DNA of 49,093 bases. It comes from a virus. Its lineage: Duplodnaviria; Heunggongvirae; Uroviricota; Caudoviricetes. The stretch is taken from positions 1 to 49,093 of the IMG/VR virus record IMGVR_UViG_2718218136_000007, one strand, 5' to 3'. Positions 10,807-42,842 of the stretch are shown here, piece by piece; the stretch's first letter is position 1, and every line of letters begins with the position of its first letter. Both the position numbers and the translations under genes were made by a program. Under the pieces are notes generated by a model that did not search any database, was not told the DNA's origin, and saw only the letters and a program-made list of their open reading frames with translations.

Positions 10807-11135
10807 CAGTTCACCACCTGTTCAAACTCTGCGCTGAACTCAACACGCAGCATACTGACCCGCGACGACCATTTTGCGCAGGTCACCTTTATCTGCCGCC
10901 ACTCATAAGGCGGCGTCCACAGAAAGGCTTTCCAGCCCCCGTGCTCTTCCAGAAACGACTCCAGTACCGTGGCCTCCTCACGGGGGACAGAAAGCGTCAC
11001 GCTGTACGTTTTCAGGTTGGCATTCAGCCCGGCAGGCGCTCGCTGAGAATAGCCATCACCAAAGCGCACCTTTCTTACAGAAGGGACCGAAGCCACATCC
11101 ATACCGGGTTTCACTTTCCAGCGGAAGGTCTTCAT
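10806..11135 (-). CDS. M: Tail tip protein M
   Basis: 109 aa, lambda M-like; overlapping start/stop with L and H. Confidence 0.9.
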   Translation of the reverse strand: MKTFRWKVKPGMDVASVPSVRKVRFGDGYSQRAPAGLNANLKTYSVTLSVPREEATVLESFLEEHGGWKAFLWTPPYEWRQIKVTCAKWSSRVSMLRVEFSAEFEQVVN

Positions 11136-12242
11136 CGTCCACCTCCGGAGAACAGGCCACCATCACGCATCTGTGTCTGAATTTCATCACGGGCACCCTT
11201 GCGGGCCATGTCATACACTGCCTTCATCATCTGTGGACCTGGCAGACCATTCGTACCGTCGTTCTGAATCACCACGTTGTTGTTCTGCTCAAACCTGATA
11301 CCCTCTGAACGCCGCATTTGCGCCGGACTTCCGGTGCCACCGACATAACCGCCGGTGGCATAGCCGCGCATCAGCCGGTAGAGATTTCCCACGCCAATCC
11401 GGCTGGTTGCCTCCTTCGTGAAGACAAATTCACCACGGTGAACAATCCCCGCTGGCTCATATTTGCCGCCGGTTCCCGTAAATCCTCCGGTTGCAAAATG
11501 GAATTTCGCCGCAGCGGCCTGAATGGCTGTACCGCCTGACGCGGATGCGCCGCCACCAACAGCCCCGCCAATGGCGCTGCCGATACTCCCGACAATCCCC
11601 ACCATTGCCTGCTTAAGCAGAATTTCTGTCATCATGGACAGCACGGAGCGGGTGAAGCTGCGCCAGTTCTGCTCACTGCCGGTCAGCATCGCCGCCATAT
11701 TCTGTGCAATACCATCAAAGGTCTGCGTGGCTGCACTTTTTACCTGCGACATACTGTCCGTGGCGCTCTCTTCCCACTCACTCCAGCCGGACTTCAGGCC
11801 TGCCATCCAGCTCCCGCGAAGCTGGTCTTCAGCCGCCCAGGTCTTTTTCTGCTCTGACATGACGTTATTCAGCGCCAGCGGATTATCGCCATACTGTTCC
11901 TTCAGGCGCTGTTCCGTGGCTTCCCGTTCTGCCTGCCGGTCAGTCAGCCCCCGGCTTTTCGCATCAATGGCGGCCCGTTTTGCCCGTTGCTGCTGTGCGA
12001 ATTTATCCGCCTGCTGCGCCAGCGCGTTCAGGCGCTCCTGATACGTAACCTTGTCGCCAAGTGCAGCCAGCTGGCGTTTGTACTCCAGCGTCTCATCTTT
12101 ATGCGCCAGCAGGGATTTCTCCTGTGCAGACAGCTGGCGACGTTGCGCCGCCTCCTCCAGTACCGCGAACTGACTCTCCGCCTTCCACAAATCCCGGCGC
12201 TGCTGGCTGATTTTCTCATTTGCTCCGGCATGCTTCTCCAGC
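11132..12242 (-). pseudogene. H: Tape measure protein H, 3' fragment (gene split by IS66-family insertion)
   Basis: ORF 11132-12334 begins with 25 IS-derived residues, then continues ...TLEKHAGANEKISQQRRDLWK... to ...RDGGLFSGGGR (lambda H C-terminus). Confidence 0.85.
12235..12242. repeat. 8-bp target-site duplication (TCTCCAGC), left copy, flanking the IS66-family element
   Basis: Identical octamer at 14942-14949; flanks join to give continuous H coding sequence (...LRTLEKHAG...). Confidence 0.8.
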
Positions 12243-12295
12243 GTAACCGGCTCATTTAAACCGTCTGGTCTATTTCCTCCGGCTCTACAAAAATA

Positions 12296-12973
12296 ATGTC
12301 CATCATTTTTAATGGACACTATCGTATGAAACACCGGACCTGGATCACTGAAGCTTTACGTCTTCACTTTGAAGAACATTTACCCCGGGTTGTGGCCGGG
12401 CGTCGCCTGGGTGTACCAAAATCAACAGTTTGTAGTATGTTCGTGCGCTTTCGGAGAGCTGGCCTTTCGTGGCCTTTGCCCGCAGGCATGTCGGAGCAGG
12501 AACTTGATGCCTGCCTTTACGGACAATTTTCCACGGTACCAGTCGTACGTCCTGAAAGCACCGTTATATCCGAAGCCCCCATGGTAAAAAAACGTCCCCG
12601 GCGGCCCAACTTCCCTTATGAGTTTAAAATCGCCTTAGTGGAGCAGTCACTGCAGCCCGGAGCCTGTGTGGCGCAGATCGCCCGGGAAAACGGAATCAAC
12701 GATAACCTGCTCTTCAACTGGCGCCATCAATACCGGAAAGGTGGCCTGCTGCCTTCCGGAAAAAATATGCCGGCACTGCTTCCCGTGACGTTAACGCCGG
12801 AGCCGGATAATAAAATCCCGGCCCCCGCACAGGAACCAGAGCAGATAAATACACCGTCCGACAGTCTGTGTTGTGAGCTGGTTCTGCCGGCCGGAACTCT
12901 CAGGCTTAAAGGTAAACTGACGCCGGCGTTATTACAGACACTTATCCGCGAAATAAAAGGGAGCAGCCACTGA
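12296..12973 (+). CDS. IS66-family accessory protein TnpA (OrfA), HTH; start uncertain (internal ATG at 12581 gives a 130-aa product)
   Basis: C-terminal part ...QPGACVAQIARENGINDNLLFNWRHQYRKGG... typical of IS66 OrfA; stop overlaps tnpB start (ATGA). Confidence 0.7.
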   Translation: MSIIFNGHYRMKHRTWITEALRLHFEEHLPRVVAGRRLGVPKSTVCSMFVRFRRAGLSWPLPAGMSEQELDACLYGQFSTVPVVRPESTVISEAPMVKKRPRRPNFPYEFKIALVEQSLQPGACVAQIARENGINDNLLFNWRHQYRKGGLLPSGKNMPALLPVTLTPEPDNKIPAPAQEPEQINTPSDSLCCELVLPAGTLRLKGKLTPALLQTLIREIKGSSH

Positions 12974-13320
12974 TGATATCTCTCCCTGCAGGTTCGCGTA
13001 TCTGGCTGGTTGCAGGTATCACCGATATGCGAAATGGCTTTAACGGCCTGGCATCAAAAGTTCAGAACGTCCTGAAGGATGACCCGTTCTCCGGACACCT
13101 GTTCATCTTCCGCGGACGCCGGGGTGACCAGATAAAAGTGTTGTGGGCTGACAGTGACGGACTGTGCCTCTTCACCAAACGCCTGGAGCGGGGCCGCTTC
13201 GTCTGGCCAGTCACCCGTGACGGCAAGGTGCACCTTACTCCGGCTCAGTTATCCATGCTTCTTGAAGGTATCAACTGGAAGCACCCGAAACGAACGGAAC
13301 GCGCTGGAATCCGCATATAA
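12973..13320 (+). CDS. IS66-family TnpB (Orf2)
   Basis: 115 aa, MISLPAGSRIWLVAGITDMRNGFNGLA... characteristic of IS66 Orf2. Confidence 0.8.
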   Translation: MISLPAGSRIWLVAGITDMRNGFNGLASKVQNVLKDDPFSGHLFIFRGRRGDQIKVLWADSDGLCLFTKRLERGRFVWPVTRDGKVHLTPAQLSMLLEGINWKHPKRTERAGIRI

Positions 13321-13339
13321 CCCGTTGTAAAGTGAGGAT

Positions 13340-14911
13340 ATGGACACCTCACTTGCTCATGAGAACGCCCGCCTGCGGGCACTGTTGCAGACGCAACAGG
13401 ACACCATCCGCCAGATGGCTGAATACAACCGCCTGCTCTCACAGCGGGTGGCGGCTTATGCTTCCGAAATCAACCGGCTGAAGGCGCTGGTTGCGAAACT
13501 GCAACGTATGCAGTTCGGTAAAAGCTCAGAAAAACTTCGTGCAAAAACCGAACGGCAGATACAGGAAGCACAGGAGCGAATCAGCGCACTTCAGGAAGAA
13601 ATGGCGGAAACGCTGGGTGAGCAATATGACCCGGTACTGCCATCCGCCCTGCGCCAGTCTTCAGCCCGTAAACCGTTACCGGCCTCACTTCCCCGTGAAA
13701 CCCGGGTTATCCGGCCGGAAGAGGAATGCTGTCCTGCCTGTGGTGGTGAACTCAGTTCTCTGGGATGTGATGTGTCAGAGCAACTGGAGCTTATCAGCAG
13801 CGCCTTTAAGGTTATCGAAACACAACGTCCGAAACAGGCCTGTTGCCGGTGCGACCATATCGTGCAGGCACCAGTACCTTCAAAACCCATTGCACGCAGT
13901 TATGCCGGAGCGGGGCTTCTGGCCCATGTTGTCACCGGGAAATATGCAGACCATCTGCCGTTATACCGCCAGTCAGAAATATACCGTCGTCAGGGAGTGG
14001 AGCTGAGCCGTGCCACACTGGGGCGCTGGACAGGTGCTGTTGCTGAACTGCTGGAGCCGCTGTATGACGTCCTGCGCCAGTATGTGCTGATGCCCGGTAA
14101 AGTCCATGCTGATGATATCCCCGTCCCGGTCCAGGAGCCGGGCAGCGGTAAAACCCGGACAGCCCGGCTGTGGGTCTACGTCCGTGATGACCGTAACGCC
14201 GGTTCACAGATGCCCCCGGCGGTCTGGTTCGCGTACAGTCCGGACCGGAAAGGTATCCATCCACAAAATCACCTGGCCGGTTACAGCGGTGTGCTTCAGG
14301 CCGATGCTTACGGTGGTTACCGGGCGTTATACGAATCCGGCAGAATAACGGAAGCCGCGTGTATGGCTCATGCCCGGAGAAAAATCCACGATGTGCATGC
14401 AAGAGCGCCCACCTACATCACCACGGAAGCCCTGCAGCGTATCGGTGAACTGTATGCCATCGAGGCAGAGGTCCGGGGCTGTTCAGCAGAACAGCGTCTG
14501 GCGGCAAGAAAAGCCAGAGCCGCGCCACTGATGCAGTCACTGTATGACTGGATACAGCAACAGATGAAAACACTGTCGCGTCACTCAGATACGGCAAAAG
14601 CGTTCGCATACCTGCTGAAACAGTGGGATGCACTGAACGTGTACTGCAGTAATGGCTGGGTGGAAATCGACAACAACATCGCAGAGAACGCCTTACGGGG
14701 AGTGGCCGTAGGCCGGAAAAACTGGATGTTCGCGGGTTCCGACAGCGGTGGTGAACATGCGGCGGTGTTGTACTCGCTGATCGGCACATGCCGTCTGAAC
14801 AATGTGGAGCCAGAAAAGTGGCTGCGTTACGTCATTGAACATATCCAGGACTGGCCGGCAAACCGGGTACGCGATCTGTTGCCCTGGAAAGTTGATCTGA
14901 GCTCTCAGTAA
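13340..14911 (+). CDS. IS66-family transposase TnpC
   Basis: 523 aa, N-terminal leucine-zipper-like region, CxxC...CxxC zinc motif (CCPACGG...CCRCDH), DDE-type core. Confidence 0.8.
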
Positions 14912-14941
14912 ATATCAATACGGTTCTGACGAGTCGCTTAC

Positions 14942-16418
14942 TCTCCAGCGTCCGGAGTTCTGCCTGAAGCGTCAGCAGGGCAGCATGAGCACTGTCTTCC
15001 TGACGATCGCCCGCAGACACCTTCACGCCGGACTGTTTCGGCTTTTTCAGCGTCGCTTCATAATCCTTTTTCGCCGCCGCCATCAGCGTGTTGTAATCCG
15101 CCTGCAGGATTTTCCCGTCTTTCAGTGCCTTGTTCAGTTCTTCCTGACGGGCGGTATATTTCTCCAGCGGCGTCTGCAGCCGTTCGTAAGCCTTCTGCGC
15201 CTCTTCGGTATATTTCAGCCGTGATGCCTCAGACTCGACCCAGTCCTTTGCTGCCATCTCTCTGGCCTTTTCAAGATCGGCCTGCAACGTGGCGGCTGAA
15301 AGCCCAAGTTGCGCATTCGCTCTGTCCTCCCATGCTCCCCGGAGATTGGCAAGAAATGCTGAGGTTTTACCGCGCCGGTGGCTCCGGCTCTGATACCACT
15401 GCCATTTTTTGTCCGCCTCATCAAAAGCCTTTTCTGCTTTCTCCAGCATTCCCTGGGCAGTGTCCGGGCGACCAATATCCAGCACCGAATCCCACATGGA
15501 TTTGAATGCCCGTGCTGTCCTGTCTGCCCAGGTCTCCAGCGTGCCCATGTTCTCTTTCAGGCGGCGGGTCTGGTCATCAAACCCTTTCGTTGCGGCCTCG
15601 TTCGCCGCCTGCAATGCCCCGGCTTCATCTCCGGAACGCTGCAACTGAGCAACATACGCAATCTGCTCCGCCGTCACGTTATGGAACTGACGTGCCATCG
15701 CTGTCAGTCCCGACGTCGGGTCTGTGGTCAGCTTCCCGAAGGCTTCAGCGACCTTGTCCACCTCCACGCCGGATGCAGAGGAGAAACGCGCCACACTCTG
15801 GCTGATCGCCTCAAACTGCTCACCACCACGCACACCGGCATTCACCAGCGCCGTCAGTGACTCGCTGGTCTGGTTAAACGTCAGCCCTGCCGCCTGCCCG
15901 GCTCTGGACAGGACCAGCATACGATCTGCCGTCAGTCCCGCCTGATTGCCGGAAAGGACCAGCGTTTTGTTGAAATCGGACAGGGTTGAGTTGCCCTGAT
16001 ACCAGGCATACGCCAGCGCACCGGTCGCCACCGCCAGCGAGGTGGCCCCCACCATCGGCAGGGTGATCGCACCGGCAAGCCCCCTGAACATGGGGATCAT
16101 CCCGCCGAAGGAGTCCTTAACCTGACCCCCCTGTTGCAGCAGGATCAGCCACGGGCTTTGCCCGCCTGCAAGCTGCGTGGCCACGTCGGTGAACTGTGCA
16201 GGCAGCATACGCATGGCGGCTTTATACTGCCCGACGGAAATCCCCGCTTTCTGTGCAGCCAGCGCCTGTCGGCTCAGCGACTGTTCAACGACTGCCGCTG
16301 TTTTTTTCGCATCAGTTTCCGTACCGGAAAAATGACGCCTGACTCTGGCCATCTGCTCGTCAAATCTGGCCGCATCCAGACTTAAATCAACGACCAGATC
16401 GCCTACCGGTTCAGCCAT
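14942..16418 (-). pseudogene. H: Tape measure protein H, 5' fragment (truncated by IS66-family insertion)
   Basis: ORF 14832-16418 begins MAEPVGDLVVDLSLDAARFDEQMARVRRHF (lambda H N-terminus), runs to ...LQAELRTLE, then 36 IS-derived codons and a stop. Confidence 0.85.
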
Positions 16419-34639: not shown

Positions 34640-35133
34640 TAAGCCCCCACGTAATTCCCTGACAGATACCACTCTTCACCCGATGCAGCGCGCTTGCTGC
34701 TTTTCCGTAAGCACCGCTCACGATGCGCCAGAAAATTGTTTCGTTCTGGCTGGGAGTGGCTTTCACGGAATGCCGCCATCCACACCGTTGCAGCTCGACG
34801 GAATAAGCCCCTGGACTCCAGTTCTTCAGCCTGGCGGGTCAGGCACAAAATCACCCGGGGGTCGTTAGTGCCGACATAGAAATTGCGCACAGGTCTGGTT
34901 TCACGAACAGATTGTGGTTCCGGCTCCTGCGCTCTCTCAGTCAGGCGCGGGAAATGTCTGCGTGTATCTCCTTCACAACGGTGAGCCACACGCCCACTCT
35001 GACGTAACTTGCTTGCTGACTGCAGAACGCGCTGCCGTGAGTAACCAGCAAAAGCATCCGCAATGTCTCCGGAAGTACACCCCGGATGGGCTTCAATGAA
35101 TTTCTGAACTTCATTCAAAAGACTCATGATCAC
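34639..35133 (-). CDS. Hypothetical protein, possibly PerC-like regulator
   Basis: 164 aa; C-terminal half contains EELESRGLFRRAATVWMAAF, reminiscent of the PerC-family motif as recalled; weak assignment. Confidence 0.35.
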   Translation of the reverse strand: MIMSLLNEVQKFIEAHPGCTSGDIADAFAGYSRQRVLQSASKLRQSGRVAHRCEGDTRRHFPRLTERAQEPEPQSVRETRPVRNFYVGTNDPRVILCLTRQAEELESRGLFRRAATVWMAAFRESHSQPERNNFLAHRERCLRKSSKRAASGEEWYLSGNYVGA

Positions 35134-35948
35134 CCCCTGAATCCTGCCGGGATCTGGCTGTAGTCCACGTTGTCGTAACTGGATTTGAAGTACGGGTCCT
35201 CACGTCTGGCTGCAGATACCGCAGGAACTTCCCAGGATTCTTCGAAATGACGATCCGGACCAAAGAACGTGACAGCCTGTTTCACAAATTGTGTGCCGCT
35301 GTTACCCATCGCAGATACCCAGCCCGCATAGCGTTTCACACCTTCCAGCATGGTTTCGGGGTTTACCCCCTCATTCAAACGGGCTTTCCAGGCTTTGAAG
35401 GCTGCAGATTTTGAATTGCCACCAGCACGTTTGGGATATGCCAGCCATGCCTGCTCAAACTCCGGAGAATATTCCGGTCGGTTTGAACGAACTCGCACGG
35501 ACTCATCAACTGATGCACCAACAGCTATTGGTTCATTGACTGGTTCTTTGACTGGTTCAAAAGAGTGACTGGTTCTGGGTGAATCTCCTGCACTACCCCC
35601 TGGTGCAACTCCTGCACTACCTGGTGAATTTGCTGCACCAGATAGTGAATTATTTGCACTACCACCTAGTGAATCTCCTGCACCATCCAGATGAAGGAGA
35701 TAGATATTACTTGAGTTACCTTTTTCACCTTTCCGGGTGACTTTTTTTACCAGCCCGGACTCACAAAGGGCCGCAATATGATTCATCACAGAACGTTTGC
35801 TAATCTCGCACTGGTCAGCAATATGCTGGTAGCTGGGCCAGCACTCACCCTGATCGCTGGCATTATCAGCCAGCTTGATCAGAACCAGTTTTCGCAATGG
35901 ATTACCCACTCGAATTTTCATCGCTTTAACCATCAGCTCCATACTCAT
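35130..35948 (-). CDS. Replication initiation protein (lambda O-like architecture: N-terminal wHTH, Gly/Ser-rich linker encoded by iterons, C-terminal domain)
   Basis: 272 aa; N-terminal wHTH (ISKRSVMNHIAALCESGLVKK); low-complexity linker GGSANNSLSGAANSPGSAGVAPGGSAGDSP; position downstream of cro/cII-like genes. Confidence 0.65.
   Translation of the reverse strand: MSMELMVKAMKIRVGNPLRKLVLIKLADNASDQGECWPSYQHIADQCEISKRSVMNHIAALCESGLVKKVTRKGEKGNSSNIYLLHLDGAGDSLGGSANNSLSGAANSPGSAGVAPGGSAGDSPRTSHSFEPVKEPVNEPIAVGASVDESVRVRSNRPEYSPEFEQAWLAYPKRAGGNSKSAAFKAWKARLNEGVNPETMLEGVKRYAGWVSAMGNSGTQFVKQAVTFFGPDRHFEESWEVPAVSAARREDPYFKSSYDNVDYSQIPAGFRG
35579..35688. repeat. Five direct repeats (about 20 bp, about 22-bp periodicity) inside the replication gene: candidate origin iterons
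   Basis: Repeat units starting at 35579, 35602, 35623, 35644, 35668 with consensus (G/A)GTGAAT-YWYYTGCAC(T/C)A; followed by a moderately AT-rich stretch 35690-35760. Confidence 0.55.
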
Positions 35949-36181
35949 GCTGCACCTCCGAGATGCTTCATGTTTTTTCCGGAGCGAAAGGTTATAAGCG
36001 GCATACTGACGCGGTAATTACGGCCCAGCGGTTCACAAATCACCTTCTGACATTCACGGTCAACCAGGCTAACACGTAGAACATGCCCTGCAGGCGTGGT
36101 GTACCACTGCCCAACTGTAGGAATTGATGTTTTTTTACGCTGAAATAAACGGTAAATGTTGAGGATCAACGGATTAAGCAT
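35945..36181 (-). CDS. Hypothetical protein (78 aa)
   Basis: ORF only; stop overlaps the replication gene start. Confidence 0.35.
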   Translation of the reverse strand: MLNPLILNIYRLFQRKKTSIPTVGQWYTTPAGHVLRVSLVDRECQKVICEPLGRNYRVSMPLITFRSGKNMKHLGGAA

Positions 36182-37010
36182 GACGATGCCCTCCGCTGAT
36201 ATTCAGGAGACGGTGAATATGAAAATTAGCCTTATCCGCCAGACGAATACGTTCAGCCTGCAAGTTAATAAGGGTTTCTACCAGAACCTGATGCGCCTGC
36301 GGATCCGAAAGAGTTACCTTGCGCAGAGCACGTAGTGCAGTTGTTACATAACTGAGTTTATGTAAGTCTTCATCATTCAGACGAGTGAGGGCTGGGACAG
36401 TAGCCATGATGGCAGCCTCCTTGATCGGTGAAATACTTCCACCACCGGAAACGCCAATTTCGCTGGTGGTGAACTGAACGGGGTTGGCGTAACCGGTGAT
36501 CAAGGAAACCGGCGCATCTTTCGATGCCCCCGCCCAGCCCACCATAACTTTGATGTGAGCAAATGCGGACGATAAAAAAGACGCTGGCGCGTCATATATC
36601 GCCTTGATCAATTCCAGGACGCCAATCCCGGCACCCGCTTTATAAGGTGCCTGAACAGTGTAACGTCCCGGAATGGCAGAATCAATGTGCTGGTGGTCCT
36701 TCACACTCAACAAAATCACGCCTGAATTTCCACAAAGGACTAAAGCACTCATGCGGGTAGTCTTTGCGAAGATAGATAACGCGCTGTGTTTCTGGTTCCC
36801 AACGAATAACATGGACATAAAGCCCTCTTCCGTCACGAAACCAGCGGTTAAGTTCCCGCACAACTCGCCCCCCACAGTCAGGTAAAGTTCTCTGTGGTTA
36901 CTTACAGCCAGGTGATTTGGTAATCTGCATTCATGCCGTAACAACAGGTGTTCAGCGACACTGACCACCAGCTGTTGCGACAAACGGTTATTTGCCGTTA
37001 AACTGTTCAT
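36174..37010 (-). CDS. Hypothetical protein (278 aa)
   Basis: ORF in operon context between the cII-like and replication genes; no family recognised by eye. Confidence 0.45.
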   Translation of the reverse strand: MNSLTANNRLSQQLVVSVAEHLLLRHECRLPNHLAVSNHRELYLTVGGELCGNLTAGFVTEEGFMSMLFVGNQKHSALSIFAKTTRMSALVLCGNSGVILLSVKDHQHIDSAIPGRYTVQAPYKAGAGIGVLELIKAIYDAPASFLSSAFAHIKVMVGWAGASKDAPVSLITGYANPVQFTTSEIGVSGGGSISPIKEAAIMATVPALTRLNDEDLHKLSYVTTALRALRKVTLSDPQAHQVLVETLINLQAERIRLADKANFHIHRLLNISGGHRHA

Positions 37011-37570
37011 GCGTTAGTTTCTCCACAGACACAAAACGCCACGACGCCCGGAGCTGCACACTCGCGGGCGTCACTCTTTTCTGGAGCGCAAAAGATTTTG
37101 TAGACCAGTGCTGCATGCTCTTGGAGCTTCGAAATTGACAGATACAACTCATCATTAATTGCTGTCTGCTCGTGTGGCTCCACGACCCCATCTTCGATTG
37201 CCGAACGAATCTGCTTTGAGTAATTCCCGATCTGTTCGATGACTTCCAGCAGGCGCTGGTTTATATCGGCGTTCTCTACTTCCTCAATTTCAGGAAGCGA
37301 TACGAACACCCCACCAGCAGACTGTGCGACAGCATCCGCAATGTAGTGAGTGCCAGCCGCGCGCTGTAAAACCATTGCCCATCCCAGCGGGAAAATCTGA
37401 TCGCCATCGGCACGAAGGCGGTTAAATAATGCGTTCTCTGTTACATCCAGCCAGTCAGCTGCTTCAGCGTAACCACCCGGCAACGCTGCGATAGTTTTTC
37501 TGACAGCTTTCACGTACCACTCAGGCTGTTTTTCTACTTTCCAGTGATACTTACCCACGGTTAGCCTCAT
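37007..37570 (-). CDS. Putative CII-like regulatory protein (phage 186 CII / CP76-like)
   Basis: 187 aa immediately downstream of cro-like gene; loose similarity in organisation to the 186 CII family; weak. Confidence 0.4.
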   Translation of the reverse strand: MRLTVGKYHWKVEKQPEWYVKAVRKTIAALPGGYAEAADWLDVTENALFNRLRADGDQIFPLGWAMVLQRAAGTHYIADAVAQSAGGVFVSLPEIEEVENADINQRLLEVIEQIGNYSKQIRSAIEDGVVEPHEQTAINDELYLSISKLQEHAALVYKIFCAPEKSDARECAAPGVVAFCVCGETNA

Positions 37571-37601
37571 CGTTCTGTGGTTAAAAATTGAAGGTGTTCT
37601 G

Positions 37602-37802
37602 TTAATCTTTCGGATAGATATCCGGTCTTAAGTCAGATTTCGTAATTGCACCTGACGTGCATTGCTCAAGTTTTTTCGCCAGCACAAAACTGGCTTTTTT
37701 ATAACCATTGAAAACCAGCCGTAAGTAGCCAGGTGTTGAGCCAACTTTTCCGGCCAACTCGCCCTGCTGTTCTTTGGTTAAAGAGTCCCAATACGCTTTC
37801 AT
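37602..37802 (-). CDS. Cro-like repressor (66 aa HTH)
   Basis: MKAYWDSLTKEQQGELAGKVGSTPGYLRLVFNGYKKASFVLAKKLEQCTSG... HTH; ATG at 37802 with GGAGG 9 nt upstream; divergent from cI-like gene; track ORF extends upstream. Confidence 0.75.
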   Translation of the reverse strand: MKAYWDSLTKEQQGELAGKVGSTPGYLRLVFNGYKKASFVLAKKLEQCTSGAITKSDLRPDIYPKD

Positions 37803-37807
37803 ACAAT

Positions 37808-37886
37808 ATGTACCTCCGATATACATATTACATGATTGAAATGAACCTTCAAGATACTTGTACCTTATCGGTACAAAGGTTTTAAT
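37808..37886. promoter_or_regulatory. Right operator/promoter region: two 7-5-7 palindromic operators plus candidate pR and pRM
   Basis: O-a ATGTACC-tccga-TATACAT (37808-37826); O-b TTGTACC-ttatc-GGTACAA (37858-37876); pR on minus strand -35 TTGAAG (37852-37847), -10 TAATAT (37830-37825); pRM on plus strand -35 TTGTAC (37858-37863), -10 TTTAAT (37881-37886), implying a nearly leaderless cI mRNA. Confidence 0.55.
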
Positions 37887-37892
37887 TTCGTT

Positions 37893-38567
37893 ATGAAAAC
37901 AATCCATGACATCCGGCGGTCTAACGCCAGAAAACTGAGAGATGGTGTTGGCGGGAATTCTTCCTTTGCCACCATGATTGATCGCGAGCCAACCCAGACC
38001 AGCAGGTTTATGGGAGATGGTGCTACTAAAAATATCGGTGACAGCATGGCGCGGCACATCGAAAAATGTTTCGACCTGCCTGTCGGATGGCTTGATCAAG
38101 AACACCAGACCACGAACATCACAAAAAAACCTGATGTTTCAATCACTAACAAACAAATAACGTTAGTCCCTGTCATATCATGGGTACAGGCCGGAGCATG
38201 GAAAGAAGTTGGCTATTCTGAGGTTGATTTGAGCACAGCAGAAACTTACCCCTGCCCTGTACCCTGTGGCGAAATGACTTATATCTTGCGGGTGATTGGT
38301 GATTCAATGATTGATGAGTACCGCCCTGGAGACATGATTTTTGTTGATCCCGAAGTCCCTGCCTGCCACGGTGACGACGTTATTGCATTGATGCACGATA
38401 CAGGCGAAACCACCTTCAAGCGATTGATAGAAGATGGAACACAGCGTTATCTCAAAGCATTAAACCCAAACTGGCCTGAGCCTTACATTAAGATTAACGG
38501 TAATTGCTCTATAATTGGTACAGTGATTTTCTCGGGAAAACCAAGAAGATACACAATAAAGGCCTAA
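37893..38567 (+). CDS. CI-like prophage repressor (HTH plus S24 LexA-like autopeptidase domain)
   Basis: 224 aa; C-terminal ILRVIGDSMIDEYRPGDMIFVDPE with Ser in GDSM and downstream Lys, typical S24 dyad; divergent from cro. Confidence 0.85.
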   Translation: MKTIHDIRRSNARKLRDGVGGNSSFATMIDREPTQTSRFMGDGATKNIGDSMARHIEKCFDLPVGWLDQEHQTTNITKKPDVSITNKQITLVPVISWVQAGAWKEVGYSEVDLSTAETYPCPVPCGEMTYILRVIGDSMIDEYRPGDMIFVDPEVPACHGDDVIALMHDTGETTFKRLIEDGTQRYLKALNPNWPEPYIKINGNCSIIGTVIFSGKPRRYTIKA

Positions 38568-38606
38568 TCAATATTTATGAATCTGCTTCGGCAGGTTTTT
38601 TTATAC

Positions 38607-38634
38607 TTGACAATGTACCCATGAGATACATAAT
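38607..38634 (+). promoter_or_regulatory. Candidate pL promoter (-35 TTGACA, 16-bp spacer, -10 CATAAT) with overlapping operator palindrome ATGTACC-catga-GATACAT
   Basis: TTGACA at 38607-38612, CATAAT at 38629-38634; operator at 38613-38631 shares the half-site with the oR operators. Confidence 0.55.
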
Positions 38635-39053
38635 GTATCCAAAAGAAACATGAGGCAGGCAAGATTCAAACAAAATTTGGTTGTAACACGGCGTATGGCA
38701 CATGCGTCGTTAGCGGTCTGGGGACGTTAAAGGGGACAATCCACTTCTTGCTCGGGCAAACAAACCAGGTAGCCGGAATGTGCAAGTCAATGATGATGCT
38801 GATAAGACGCCTAACCAGCGTGGCGATCCGGTTTGACGCCTGGGAAGAGACCAGGGTGCAACGATGAGGGCATTTATAGAGCCGCGACAAAGTGTGGTGC
38901 CGTAACTGGCTAAGTGCTCTCAGCGTTGTGGTAATCCGCGAAATGGCGCGGCGGTAAGTATGGCGGGGTTACTCTTTCCCCGTTGAGGACACCGGATTGT
39001 CAGGTTGACCATACGCCTGAGTGACAACCCCACCACAACAGCCACTGCTTTGG

Positions 39054-39099
39054 CGGTACCAGTTTGTACACTTGCTTCCGGCTGGTACCGCTCTTTTTA
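39054..39099 (+). terminator. Terminator-like hairpin in the pL leader (perfect 9-bp stem CGGTACCAG/CTGGTACCG, 19-nt loop, then CTCTTTTT); overlaps a boxA-like CGCTCTTTTTA
   Basis: Stem arms 39054-39062 and 39082-39090; T-run 39093-39098; followed by a long imperfect hairpin 39100-39186. Confidence 0.4.
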
Positions 39100-39235
39100 C
39101 AAAATAGAGAAGAGCATCACCGGACGACGGGCTCATAACCCAATCCATCCGGGCGGCTGCCACCGCAGGTGTTCTTCTCTGTTTTGTGGAGAAACCAACC
39201 GACCTTGCAGGGTCGATATGATGAGGAGCAGCAAA

Positions 39236-39598
39236 ATGGCTAGCGAACGCAGTACTGATGTGCAGGCATTTATCGGGGAGCTGGACGGCGGCGTATTTGA
39301 AACCAAAATCGGCGCAGTTCTCAGTGAAGTCGCTTCCGGTGTGATGAACACGAAAACCAAAGGTAAGGTCTCACTCAACCTGGAAATCGAACCATTTGAT
39401 GAGAACCGTGTGAAAATCAAACACAAACTCTCATATGTTCGCCCGACTAACCGCGGGAAAATTTCCGAAGAAGACACCACCGAAACGCCGATGTATGTCA
39501 ATCGCGGTGGTCGCCTGACTATTCTGCAGGAAGACCAGGGACAATTACTGACTCTTGCCGGTGAACCTGACGGAAAACTACGCGCAGCAGGTCATTAA
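39236..39598 (+). CDS. yfdP: YfdP-like protein (120 aa)
   Basis: MASERSTDVQAFIGELDGGVFETKIGAVLSEV...; GAGGAG 6 nt upstream; first gene of a yfdP-yfdQ-yfdR-yfdS array as in prophage CPS-53. Confidence 0.7.
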   Translation: MASERSTDVQAFIGELDGGVFETKIGAVLSEVASGVMNTKTKGKVSLNLEIEPFDENRVKIKHKLSYVRPTNRGKISEEDTTETPMYVNRGGRLTILQEDQGQLLTLAGEPDGKLRAAGH

Positions 39599-39663
39599 TA
39601 TCGTTCTTAATTAACTGATTATTTATCTCATCACTGAATATCTTTATATAGTGAGGACTTATT

Positions 39664-40488
39664 ATGTCTCAGAACTTAGACGCAACCGCAATTAATCAAA
39701 TCCATGCCCTTATTTCTGCTCAGGGTGTTAATGAAATTATCAGTAATATTGGTGCCGATGCTGTGGCATTGCCTGAGAATTTCCGCATTCATGATCTGGA
39801 AAAATTTAATTTAAATCGCTTCCGTTTCCGTGGTGCGCTTTCCACTGCCAGCATCGATGACTTTACCCGTTATTCTAAAGATCTTGCAGATGAAGGCACC
39901 CGCTGCTTTATCGATGCTGATAATATGCGTGCCGTCAGTGTACTTAACCTGGGTACTATTGATGAACCAGGTCACGCAGATAACACCGCCACTCTCAAAC
40001 TGAAAAAGACAGCACCGTTCTCTGCCCTGTTGTCTGTTAACGGCGAGCGTAACTCCCAGAAGTCACTGGCAGAATGGATTGAAGACTGGGCCGACTACCT
40101 TGTGGGCTTTGATGCTAATGGTGACGCTATTCAGGCAACAAAAGCGGCTGCGGCAGTCCGTAAAATCACGATTGAAGCAAACCAGACCGCTGATTTTGAA
40201 GATAATGACTTCAGCGGCAAACGCTCCCTGATGGAGTCTGTCGAAGCGAAGACCAAAGACATTATGCCAGTGGCATTTGAATTTAAATGCGTTCCGTTTG
40301 AAGGTCTGAAAGAACGTCCGTTTAAATTACGCCTCAGCATTATCACTGGCGATCGTCCTGTACTGGTTCTGCGCATTATTCAGCTGGAGGCGGTGCAGGA
40401 AGAAATGGCTAACGAATTTCGTGATCTGCTTGTTGAGAAATTCAAGGACAGCAAAGTAGAAACCTTTATTGGTACTTTCACCGCCTGA
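39664..40488 (+). CDS. yfdQ: YfdQ-like protein (DUF2303)
   Basis: 274 aa, same length and gene neighbourhood as E. coli YfdQ. Confidence 0.7.
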
Positions 40489-40615
40489 TTTCATTACTGC
40501 AAATGCCCCTGCGGGGGCATTTATGGAAACGTAATTTACTCAATAATCGCCGGATGGTGAGGGATTCTTTTTACCAGAATTCAGCGCGGTGCAGCGCATA
40601 TACGTGGAGAACAAA

Positions 40616-41152
40616 ATGTCATTTATCAAAACTTTTTCTGGGAAGCATTTTTATTATGACAGGATAAATAAAGACGACATCGATATTAACGATATCGCGG
40701 TTTCCCTTTCAAATATCTGTCGCTTTGCCGGTCATCTTTCGCACTTCTACAGCGTCGCCCAACATGCGGTTCTTTGCAGCCAGCTGGTGCCGCAGGAATT
40801 TGCTTTTGAAGCGTTAATGCATGATGCAACAGAAGCGTATTGCCAGGACATTCCCGCACCACTGAAACGCCTTCTTCCTGACTATAAACGGATGGAAGAA
40901 AAAATAGACGCCGTAATCCGTGAGAAATACGGGTTACCCCCGGTTATGAGTACACCCGTGAAATATGCCGATCTCATCATGCTGGCAACCGAACGCCGCG
41001 ATCTCGGGCTTGATGATGGCTCTTTCTGGCCTGTACTGGAAGGCATCCCGGCAACAGAGATGTTCAACGTGATTCCACTGGCACCGGGCCATGCCTACGG
41101 GATGTTTATGGAACGTTTTAACGATTTATCGGAGTTACGCAAATGCGCATGA
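40616..41152 (+). CDS. yfdR: HD-domain 5'-deoxynucleotidase YfdR-like
   Basis: 178 aa from ATG 40616 (GGAGA upstream); HD motif region ...SVAQHAV...LMHDATEAY... Confidence 0.75.
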   Translation: MSFIKTFSGKHFYYDRINKDDIDINDIAVSLSNICRFAGHLSHFYSVAQHAVLCSQLVPQEFAFEALMHDATEAYCQDIPAPLKRLLPDYKRMEEKIDAVIREKYGLPPVMSTPVKYADLIMLATERRDLGLDDGSFWPVLEGIPATEMFNVIPLAPGHAYGMFMERFNDLSELRKCA

Positions 41153-41231
41153 ATGTTTTCGAAATGGAAGGGTTTCTTCGCGGGAAATGTGTACCGCGAG
41201 ATCTGAAAGTGAACGAAACAAATGCTGAGTA

Positions 41232-42560
41232 CTGAGAGATCCCCTCATAATTTCCCCAAAGCGTAACCATGTGTGAATAAATTTTGAGCTAGTAGGGTTG
41301 CAGCCACGAGTAAGTCTTCCCTTGTTATTGTGTAGCCAGAATGCCGCAAAACTTCCATGCCTAAGCGAACTGTTGAGAGTACGTTTCGATTTCTGACTGT
41401 GTTAGCCTGGAAGTGCTTGTCCCAACCTTGTTTCTGAGCATGAACGCCCGCAAGCCAACATGTTAGTTGAAGCATCAGGGCGATTAGCAGCATGATATCA
41501 AAACGCTCTGAGCTGCTCGTTCGGCTATGGCGTAGGCCTAGTCCGTAGGCAGGACTTTTCAAGTCTCGGAAGGTTTCTTCAATCTGCATTCGCTTCGAAT
41601 AGATATTAACAAGTTGTTTGGGTGTTCGAATTTCAACAGGTAAGTTAGTTGCTAGAACCCATGGCTCCTTTGCCGACGCTGAGTAGATTTTAGGTGACGG
41701 GTGGTGACAATGAGTCCGTGTCGAGCGCTGATTTTTTCGGCCTTTAGAGCGAGATTTATACAATAGAATTTGGCATGAGATTGGATTGCTTTTAGTCAGC
41801 CTCTTATAGCCTAAAGTCTTTGAGTGACTAGATGACATATCATGTAAGTTGCTGATAGGTTTCCAGTTTTCCGCTCCTAGGTCTGCATATTGTACTTTTC
41901 CTCTTACTCGACTTAACCAGTACCAACCCAGCTTCTCAACGGATTTATACCATGGCACTTTAAAGCCAGCATCACTGACAATGAGCGGTGTGGTGTTACT
42001 CGGTAGAATGCTCGCAAGGTCGGCTAGAAATTGGTCATGAGCTTTCTTTGAACATTGCTCTGAAAGCGGGAACGCTTTCTCATAAAGAGTAACAGAACGA
42101 CCGTGTAGTGCGACTGAAGCTCGCAATACCATAAGTCGTTTTTGCTCACGAATATCAGACCAGTCAACAAGTACAATGGGCATCGTATTGCCCGAACAGA
42201 TAAAGCTAGCATGCCAACGGTATACAGCGAGTCGCTCTTTGTGGAGGTGACGATTACCTAACAATCGGTCGATTCGTTTGATGTTATGTTTTGTTCTCGC
42301 TTTGGTTGGCAGGTTACGGCCAAGTTCGGTAAGAGTGAGAGTTTTACAGTCAAGTAATGCGTGGCAAGCCAACGTTAAGCTGTTGAGTCGTTTTAAGTGT
42401 AATTCGGGGCAGAATTGGTAAAGAGAGTCGTGTAAAATATCGAGTTCGCACATCTTGTTGTCTGATTATTGATTTTTCGCGAAACCATTTGATCATATGA
42501 CAAGATGTGTATCTACCTTAACTTAATGATTTTGATAAAAATCATTAGGGGATTCATCAG
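41232..42560 (-). mobile_element. IS10 (1329 bp) insertion sequence
   Basis: Ends CTGAGAGATCCCCTCATAATTTCCCC (inside end, 41232-) and ...GGGGATTCATCAG (reverse complement of outside end CTGATGAATCCCC, ending 42560); flanked by 9-bp direct repeat TGCTGAGTA. Confidence 0.9.
41245..42453 (-). CDS. tnpA: IS10 transposase (IS4 family)
   Basis: 402 aa, MCELDILHDSLYQFCPELHLKRLNSLTLACHALLDCKTLTLTELGRNLPTKA... characteristic of Tn10/IS10 transposase. Confidence 0.9.
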   Translation of the reverse strand: MCELDILHDSLYQFCPELHLKRLNSLTLACHALLDCKTLTLTELGRNLPTKARTKHNIKRIDRLLGNRHLHKERLAVYRWHASFICSGNTMPIVLVDWSDIREQKRLMVLRASVALHGRSVTLYEKAFPLSEQCSKKAHDQFLADLASILPSNTTPLIVSDAGFKVPWYKSVEKLGWYWLSRVRGKVQYADLGAENWKPISNLHDMSSSHSKTLGYKRLTKSNPISCQILLYKSRSKGRKNQRSTRTHCHHPSPKIYSASAKEPWVLATNLPVEIRTPKQLVNIYSKRMQIEETFRDLKSPAYGLGLRHSRTSSSERFDIMLLIALMLQLTCWLAGVHAQKQGWDKHFQANTVRNRNVLSTVRLGMEVLRHSGYTITREDLLVAATLLAQNLFTHGYALGKL

Positions 42561-42842
42561 TGCTGAGTACCTGGTACGTAAATTCGACGCGCTTGAAGCT
42601 AAATGTGCGGCACTGGAAAACAAAATAATACCAGTGTCAACTGAACTGCCACCAGCAAATGAAAGTGTTCTGTTATTTGATGCTAATGGAGAAGACTGGC
42701 TGATTGGCTGGCGTTCTCTCTGGTACACCTGGGGACAAAAAGAAACCGGAGAATGGCAGTGGACATTTCAGGTCGGGGACCTTGAAAACTTCAATATCAC
42801 TCACTGGGCAGTAATGCCCAAAGCGCCGGAGGCTGGAGCATA

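Follow-up and report, generated by a model that had tools for sequence, protein, structure and literature searches.

The closest described counterpart of the locus considered here is the yfdP-yfdQ-yfdR-yfdS-yfdT cluster of the CPS-53 (KpLE1) prophage of Escherichia coli K-12. The K-12 YfdR protein binds to domain I of DnaA, where residue Phe46 is important for the binding, and it moderately inhibits the binding of both DiaA and DnaB to DnaA; multicopy yfdQRS or yfdQRT inhibits initiation at oriC in vivo, extracts oversupplied with YfdQRST inhibit initiation in vitro, and the authors have proposed that in the ancestral phage the function was similar to that of lambda P (PMC4776307). The genes yfdPQ have been treated as one operon in K-12 (PMC9181523), and the yfd cluster has been described as a common constituent of early-left operons in lambdoid phages, whether or not a Rec module is present (PMC12315714, published in 2025). 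In the present work, we have analysed a stretch of viral DNA of 49,093 nucleotides (IMG/VR record IMGVR_UViG_2718218136_000007, Caudoviricetes), referred to below in its full length as the window, which contains a yfdP-yfdQ-yfdR cassette (yfdPQR) at positions 39236-41152. The original prediction for this cassette, made from the letters alone, had proposed a superinfection-exclusion or anti-defence module and had made no mention of the published binding of YfdR to DnaA in K-12. Our analyses lead us to hold, with moderate confidence, that yfdPQR are the first genes of an operon driven by the repressor-controlled promoter pL, that they would stay silent in the lysogen until induction switches them on, and that they would serve the takeover of host replication. 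The cassette is already known, as its genes are named in RefSeq and both the DnaA-binding data and its position in lambdoid phages have been published; the only item that may be new is a structured RNA in the leader upstream of yfdPQR.

The window is an E. coli lambdoid prophage of the SfV/mEp460/ST64B type without a recognisable Rec module. Over positions 30500-41232 and 42561-49093 it shares 99.9% identity with a prophage in NZ_OX030701 that adjoins yjjG/rimI, not argW as K-12 CPS-53 does, and in which the Prokaryotic Genome Annotation Pipeline (PGAP) has named the same coordinates yfdP, yfdQ, and yfdR. The three open reading frames (ORFs) lie where the original prediction had placed them, and their identity and order and the HD motif of YfdR are borne out by direct comparison with CPS-53 of K-12 MG1655, in which 119 of 120 (YfdP), 271 of 274 (YfdQ), and 176 of 178 (YfdR) residues are identical; as sequence matches these are far above chance. 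The homology and profile hidden Markov model (HMM) comparisons that had been suggested as a check have thus confirmed all three genes (Pfam, PHROG, and K-12 comparison). YfdQ is a full-length, stand-alone member of the DUF2303 family (309 bits against a Pfam cutoff of 26.6), as had been proposed, and YfdP is assigned to its family both by sequence match and by its place directly upstream of a DUF2303 gene, its homologues carrying the precomputed Pfam annotation PF27127. Of 5426 complete E. coli genomes, 1228 carry at least 80% of the segment 38500-41300; 184 phage records contain a gene for YfdQ, and the genes are present in many lambdoid phages, plaque-forming ones included. No recognisable single-strand annealing protein or exonuclease is encoded in this prophage, which belongs to the type without a Rec module that is discussed in PMC12315714.

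The arrangement upstream of yfdP is that of a lambda-type early-left operon (Table 1), the plus strand of the window corresponding to the "leftward" direction of lambda: the putative pL, which is annotated as a promoter in phage Ayreon, is directed away from the cro side, it shares its operators with OR, and the genes downstream of it run in the order yfdP, yfdQ, yfdR, yfdS, a gene for a 206-aa DUF551 protein, and xis. The 19-bp operator motif has five matches in the 49-kb window, viz. three in OR and two over pL, and none elsewhere, where 0.38 matches would be expected. Since the operators over pL match those of OR, yfdPQR are predicted to be repressed in the lysogen, and with a terminator after the cI-like gene besides, the expression in the lysogen that the original prediction had envisaged appears unlikely. 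Its claim that these are the first genes transcribed from the putative pL holds, in that no other ORF lies between pL and yfdP, although a structured leader of about 600 nt intervenes. The further claim that the cassette sits where rex or recombination genes normally do is correct in part. Lambda rexAB and yfdPQR are both accessory genes that adjoin the repressor gene, and the cassette does belong to an early-left operon between repressor and xis. However, in the lysogen rexAB shares the pRM transcript of cI, whereas here a terminator ends the cI transcript, and this terminator together with pL/OL separates cI from a cassette that lies downstream of pL; hence the position is not that of rex and corresponds to that of N and the early-left genes. 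No N gene and no nutL was found. The same layout, viz. repressor, long gap, yfdP, yfdQ, and HD gene, continuing to xis, is seen in lambdoid relatives with 57-67% protein identity, which also have in common the leader RNA upstream of yfdP, whereas the rest of their leader cannot be aligned and their downstream genes differ.

Under the reading that we favour, yfdPQR would be transcribed after induction through the long leader with its terminator-like hairpin and conserved RNA. YfdR would then bind domain I of DnaA at Phe46, compete with DiaA and DnaB, and damp initiation at oriC. We ascribe DnaA binding, and with it the inhibition of initiation, to the YfdR protein of the window because it is identical at all but two positions to the K-12 protein that was assayed. 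In acting this way YfdR would resemble lambda P, Bacillus subtilis SirA, and Dps, which bind DnaA to stop initiation at oriC, and its site on domain I around Phe46 is the equivalent of the SirA site (PMC4776307); however, it has no sequence relationship to any of the three, it is an HD hydrolase, and its effect requires co-expressed partners. Lambda P, unlike YfdR, binds domain III of DnaA and also loads DnaB. The damping of oriC may free host DnaB for the replication module of the phage. In the window this module appears to consist of a single initiator gene of the DnaD-like kind, directly followed by a PerC-like gene; no helicase loader and no gene resembling those for lambda P, DnaC or DnaB was seen in this arm. 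The pR arm has genes for the DnaD_N/HTH initiator, PerC, a methylase, RusA, KilA-N, DUF968, and Q. YfdP and YfdQ, as a separate module associated with DNA metabolism, would assemble into a complex in which YfdQ is a large homo-oligomer; this complex may act on replication or recombination intermediates and assist the effect of YfdR.

YfdR shares the HD fold and the metal-binding tetrad H...HD...D (H50, H69-D70, and D119) with YfbR, the HD 5'-deoxynucleotidase of E. coli, and is homologous to the HD protein Atu1052 (PDB 2gz4; E 4e-14, with the motifs aligned), its closest solved relative, which places it in the HD superfamily. Its start is the ATG at 40616, as supported by PGAP and by alignment of homologues, and not that of the longer GTG-initiated ORF at 40589. 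The assignment to the YfbR-type 5'-deoxynucleotidases, made in the original prediction and likewise in the RefSeq name of YfdR ("5'-deoxynucleotidase"), is at odds with scores that fall below the family cutoffs of both Pfam PF12917 (24.1 against 25.9 bits) and NCBIfam NF003009 (19.9 against 122 bits). By its sequence YfdR is best placed in an HD family separate from YfbR (phrog_318), which itself bears the name "deoxyribonucleoside 5' monophosphate phosphatase". The affinities that YfdR shows for nucleotides are, according to Zimmerman et al. (2008) as cited in PMC4776307, much below those of YfbR, and a weak activity as a deoxynucleoside 5'-monophosphate phosphatase would be a secondary function of this protein.

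The cassette, which had been taken as a single unit, consists of two separable modules, the tightly linked yfdP-yfdQ pair and yfdR, which occur independently of one another. Co-occurrence was assessed from phage records and from loci fetched with a DNA motif of the leader RNA; a related-locus search of viral contigs gave only copies that are at least 99% identical. A YfdP homologue lies directly upstream of YfdQ in all seven divergent phages compared (viz. ST64B, ArgO145, the Vibrio phages VvAW1, 24E35.2, and D93, Pseudomonas phage pAN, and Xanthomonas phage CP2; HMM of alignment A2, E 1e-24 to 5e-68). A YfdR homologue stands beside YfdQ only in enterobacterial lambdoid phages; it is three genes away in pAN, and for ArgO145, VvAW1, 24E35.2, D93, and CP2 none was found in the sequence fetched around YfdQ. 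Conversely, of 120 viral contigs fetched by the leader motif about 21 have yfdR and lack yfdPQ, with yfdR often starting 184 nt after the motif, and a few of the motif-fetched loci, as well as loci from Kosakonia, Vibrio, Xanthomonas, and ArgO145, have yfdPQ without yfdR.

The YfdQ family is large, comprising 1751 clusters at 50% identity in a profile search of 1.8 billion representative proteins; among the best 150 of these clusters most proteins have 249-302 aa, a few are shorter fragments, and a domain fusion that would hint at a function of YfdQ is not evident. A homologue has been deposited as "YfdQ Protein" (PDB 9o7m; 36 chains, match E 1e-44), with a sequence 98.8% identical to that of the CP2-like Xanthomonas phage MET23-P3; no publication on this entry was found. 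We considered whether 9o7m might be part of a virion reconstruction, and rejected this; the capsid protein and YfdP of MET23-P3 have no close PDB entries, and 9o7m is therefore probably a homo-oligomer of YfdQ alone. In distant phages the neighbours of yfdPQ include genes for single-stranded DNA-binding protein (SSB), Erf, exonucleases, and DnaQ-like proteins. In the CP2-like Xanthomonas phage from which the solved protein comes (locus L237, 27837-28661, minus strand), yfdP-yfdQ lies directly upstream of a cluster with Erf, exonuclease, and SSB. A candidate STnc100 RNA at 40480-40659 was weak (20 bits against a gathering score of 47) and was not retained.

Several observations weigh against the takeover of host replication by yfdPQR. 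The effect on DnaA has been seen only with multicopy expression and needs yfdQ together with yfdS or yfdT besides yfdR; the authors concede that it may be an artefact of overexpression, and deletion of yfdQRST has no initiation phenotype (PMC4776307). The role given to YfdPQ is a guess from gene neighbourhoods, since fold searches with the YfdQ and YfdP models returned no informative structural relatives. The predicted terminator-like hairpin at 39053-39098 could restrict expression from pL. Finally, the prophage is defective, because yfdS is cut by IS10 and the tape-measure gene is split by an IS66-family element, the latter leaving it unable to make tails; yfdPQR are intact, and the module may escape selection for lytic growth.

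The locus can be read in other ways. In one such reading, YfdP-YfdQ would be an unrecognised system for recombination or the handling of DNA ends that replaces the missing Rec module. The pair occupies the place of exo/bet or erf in other lambdoid phages, in a prophage lacking the corresponding enzymes, and has the SSB, Erf, and exonuclease neighbours mentioned above; the 36 chains of the solved homologue recall the rings and filaments of annealing proteins, and a yfdQ deletion is weakly sensitive to methyl methanesulfonate and H2O2. Against this, our comparisons revealed neither similarity of the pair to Redbeta/RecT, Erf, Rad52, Sak4 or Gp2.5 nor mutual exclusivity with modules of these kinds, and we regard the proposal as improbable. 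Still less do we favour the superinfection-exclusion or anti-defence module of the original prediction, in which the HD enzyme, with YfdQ as its partner, would change the nucleotide pools or break down a nucleotide that is toxic or serves as a signal. HD hydrolases do act on nucleotides, accessory genes abound in the early-left region, and the same arm carries the defence gene dsr1; moreover, a DUF2303 protein of Burkholderia phage JC1 has been detected in virions, as would fit an injected counter-defence protein (PMC9144972), and production of YfdQ in K-12 triggered the production of another resident phage (bioRxiv 10.1101/413146). However, with operators over pL and a terminator behind cI, expression in the lysogen appears unlikely, and with it exclusion by the prophage; no PADLOC model matches YfdP, YfdQ or YfdR at E <= 0.01 in a search that recovered Dsr1 of the same window as a positive control. 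No paper linking these genes to defence or counter-defence was found. Taken together, this function seems to us quite improbable.

The comparison with K-12 bears on the last alternative, that yfdPQR are domesticated cargo that aids stress tolerance of the host, as has been proposed for CPS-53. In K-12, yfdPQ is activated in stationary phase by the host regulator SrsR, which binds in the yfdO/yfdP spacer (PMC9181523); strains that have lost CPS-53, yfdQ or yfdS are sensitive to H2O2, and the prophage in the window is defective. The two loci share the same genes in the same order with 98-99% protein identity, but CPS-53 no longer has the repressor, pL/OL, or any of the leader, and has a rearranged spacer bound by SrsR, whereas the window retains its native control region, with pL and OL intact, and has yfdS split by IS10. 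The window lacks the K-12 spacer and the SrsR boxes in it; homology between the two sequences sets in only at 19 nt upstream of yfdP, and no SrsR box was found before this gene in the window. With the same genes present in many plaque-forming phages, a role as host cargo is, in our view, very improbable for this locus, and the takeover of host replication after induction remains the reading that we prefer.

The leader between pL and yfdP contains no plus-strand ORF and no PGAP gene. Its homology to phages of a different immunity region starts at about 38660; the equivalent gaps measure about 815 nt in ST64B and about 990 nt in phiNP, and alignment across these two phages and the present prophage is restricted to the last ~150 nt. 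Within the leader, the stem of the terminator-like hairpin at 39053-39098 shows compensatory changes in ST64B, and the small hairpin at 39200-39215 keeps its structure with changed sequence in ST64B and phiNP. Between them lies an RNA of about 104 nt that is predicted to fold into a three-way junction (minimum free energy -61.6 kcal/mol, z = -5.6). In an alignment of 20 distinct sequences from at least 10 genera, 97.6% of cells pair, compared with 39-53% when the partners are slid, and 12 of 39 pairs show compensatory changes where shuffles give 5.7 +/- 1.4 and none of 500 shuffles reaches the observed value. A covariance model of this RNA (R1) finds a single copy in the window, scoring 109.7 bits on the plus strand against 34.1 bits on the minus strand, the next best match being 14.6 bits. 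With lax filters and E <= 10, no plus-strand match to Rfam 15 overlaps this RNA (39092-39195), and ARAGORN finds no tRNA. The end of arm P2 (GGGCUCAUAACCC) bears what we take to be a resemblance to the anticodon arm of initiator tRNA (tRNA-fMet); the loci were fetched with an exact core motif, and the invariance of the P2 loop follows from this choice.

The leader RNA occurs upstream of varied first genes (yfdP, yfdR, and others) in many enterobacterial prophages, and because it precedes whichever gene is first it is part of the operon backbone and not of the cassette. With R1 it was not found in K-12 CPS-53, in ArgO145, or in the Vibrio, Pseudomonas, and Xanthomonas phages. A shorter variant, with about 41-43 bits to R1, is present in the Klebsiella phages RCIP0034 (L031, 2508-2573) and vB_Kpn_Chronis (L032, 2508-2573) directly after tRNA-Asn/tRNA-Arg genes and upstream of lysis genes, i.e., in a late-operon context; in RCIP0034 an annotated Q antiterminator gene lies upstream of it. 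An antisense ORF over the leader RNA (38969-39163, minus strand) matches phrog_3651. We have rejected a protein-coding explanation of the leader by this ORF, which is probably a spurious call, because none of the indels in P3 (25, 4, 2, and 1 nt) has a length divisible by three and many G-U pairs form on the plus strand only; the phrog_3651 family itself probably rests on spurious ORF calls over the RNA. A further observation concerns the pR transcript, which at 37013-37027 (minus strand), at the stop of the cII-like gene and the start of the next gene, carries UGUGGAGAAACUAAC, an exact match to the conserved 3' tail of the leader RNA family that agrees at 14 of 15 positions with the copy in the window (39185-39199, plus strand); by a rough estimate the chance of a match of this quality is about 3%.

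Structured cis-acting RNAs in lambdoid early-left leaders are also known as HK022 put and as the RNase III stem of the lambda nutL/N leader, and the lambda N leader shares with the RNA described here a long perfect helix shortly before the first gene. The HK022 put site consists of about 70 nt with two stem-loops directly after pL and has a twin in putR, whereas the present RNA is a three-way junction of about 104 nt, in a single copy about 450 nt downstream of pL; it has a boxA-like CGCTCTTTTT buried in P1, in a prophage with no N gene. A search of the HK022 immunity region with R1 gave only weak and non-credible matches (best 16.7 bits), and the pR arm contains no inverted repeat related to the leader RNA. 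Identity with put or nut was accordingly rejected on the single copy, the different fold, the absence of a credible HK022 match, and the absence of a twin in the pR arm. Most plausibly, the leader RNA would be a control element connected with RNase III or translation, or would serve for readthrough; that it is a decoy for nucleases or factors that recognise the anticodon arm of tRNA-fMet, such as enteric VapC toxins, is speculation. We tentatively put forward, as a possibility that we do not yet favour, that this undescribed RNA, placed after a conserved terminator-like hairpin and with one arm mimicking the anticodon stem-loop of initiator tRNA, governs early-left operons in a large group of enterobacterial lambdoid (pro)phages, and separately that YfdP-YfdQ is an oligomeric machine of new fold that aids YfdR in stopping host initiation.

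The remaining features of the window are listed with the above in Table 1. The junction between IS10 and yfdS is present in 2 of 5426 genomes, one of which is the K-12 derivative ET12567, where it lies in CPS-53; with so few genomes, this one among them, the site looks like a hotspot that was hit independently. The Dsr1 gene, named dsr1 in RefSeq, is flanked by xis and the integrase gene. Two Rfam matches that exceed their gathering scores, a C4 antisense RNA (82 bits) and the Hfq-binding RNA isrK (64 bits), are found in the pR arm at 36462-36650 (minus strand), within or beside a gene for an Ash-family protein or transcriptional regulator.

Table 1. Features of the 49,093-nucleotide window, grouped by region (aa, amino acids; IS, insertion sequence).
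Feature	Coordinates	Strand	Characteristics
cro-like gene	37602-37802	-	Flanks the 90-bp OR region with the cI-like gene
OR, three operator copies (ATGTAYC-N5-GRTACAT)	37808-37876		Sites at 37808, 37841, and 37858; between cro-like and cI-like genes
cI-like (YmfK-type) LexA/S24 repressor gene	37893-38567	+	Pfam Peptidase_S24 (1.5e-26); phrog_4, transcriptional repressor; PGAP ymfK, LexA family
Strong intrinsic terminator of repressor transcript	38579-38606 (hairpin 38579-38598)	+	UUCG-loop hairpin, then T7 run; annotated terminator in phage Ayreon
Putative pL, near-consensus sigma-70 promoter	38607-38651	+	TTGACA at 38607, 16-nt spacer, CATAAT ending at 38634; 11/12 matches
Two OL operators	38613-38631 and 38633-38651	+	Overlap putative pL; motif common to OR
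Untranslated leader, ~600 nt	38641-39235	+	Separates pL from yfdP
Terminator-like hairpin	39053-39098	+	10-bp stem GCGGTACCAG/CTGGTACCGC, 19-nt loop, then TCTTTTT
Conserved three-way-junction leader RNA, ~104 nt	39092-39195	+	P1 of ~22 bp; P2 ending in GGGCUCAUAACCC; P3 hairpin of variable length
Small hairpin	39200-39215	+	Directly upstream of yfdP Shine-Dalgarno GAGGAG (39223-39228)
yfdP, 120 aa	39236-39598	+	phrog_204 (1.2e-49)
yfdQ, 274 aa, DUF2303 (PF10065)	39664-40488	+	Domain match over residues 7-272
GC-rich 9-bp hairpin after yfdQ	40501-40522	+	Stable, no U tract; annotated terminator in phage Ayreon
yfdR, 178 aa, HD-domain phosphohydrolase	40616-41152	+	phrog_318 (4e-111)
yfdS, 5' fragment	41143-41231	+	Cut after 30 codons; gene intact in H1
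IS10, 1329 bp	41232-42560	-	9-bp target duplication TGCTGAGTA at 41223-41231 and 42561-42569; RNA-OUT at 42446-42515
yfdS, 3' part, DUF551	42561-42843	+	Beyond IS10
206-aa DUF551 protein gene	42843-43463	+	Next after yfdS
Excisionase gene (xis), phrog_1553	43463-43657	+	End of early-left operon
Dsr1 defence-associated sirtuin gene, 1275 aa	43860-47687	-	Full-length PADLOC Dsr1 match (2734 bits)
Integrase gene	~47870-49093	-	Beyond Dsr1
HTH_36/DnaD_N replication initiator gene	35130-35948	-	PerC-like gene at lower coordinates
IS66-family element	12296-14911	+	HTH_Tnp_1, TnpB_IS66, and DDE_Tnp_IS66 genes; splits tape-measure gene
Lambda-type tail tape-measure gene, two pieces	11132-12334 and 14832-16418	-	Flank the IS66-family element

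The cassette itself gives nothing new, and it is the leader RNA that merits further work. If the proposal made for it above is true, this RNA could be a new kind of cis-regulator, for instance a control element of the RNase III or translation type, or a readthrough device that works without a protein, and it provides a cheap and testable candidate for early-left control in phages that have no N gene. For the genes downstream of it, the pair yfdPQ, which is one of the more widespread phage gene pairs without an assigned function, and yfdR are best studied as separate modules. The intact control region of this prophage, which is absent from K-12, predicts expression on induction only, and it sets the overexpression results obtained in K-12 in the context of the takeover of the host by a phage.

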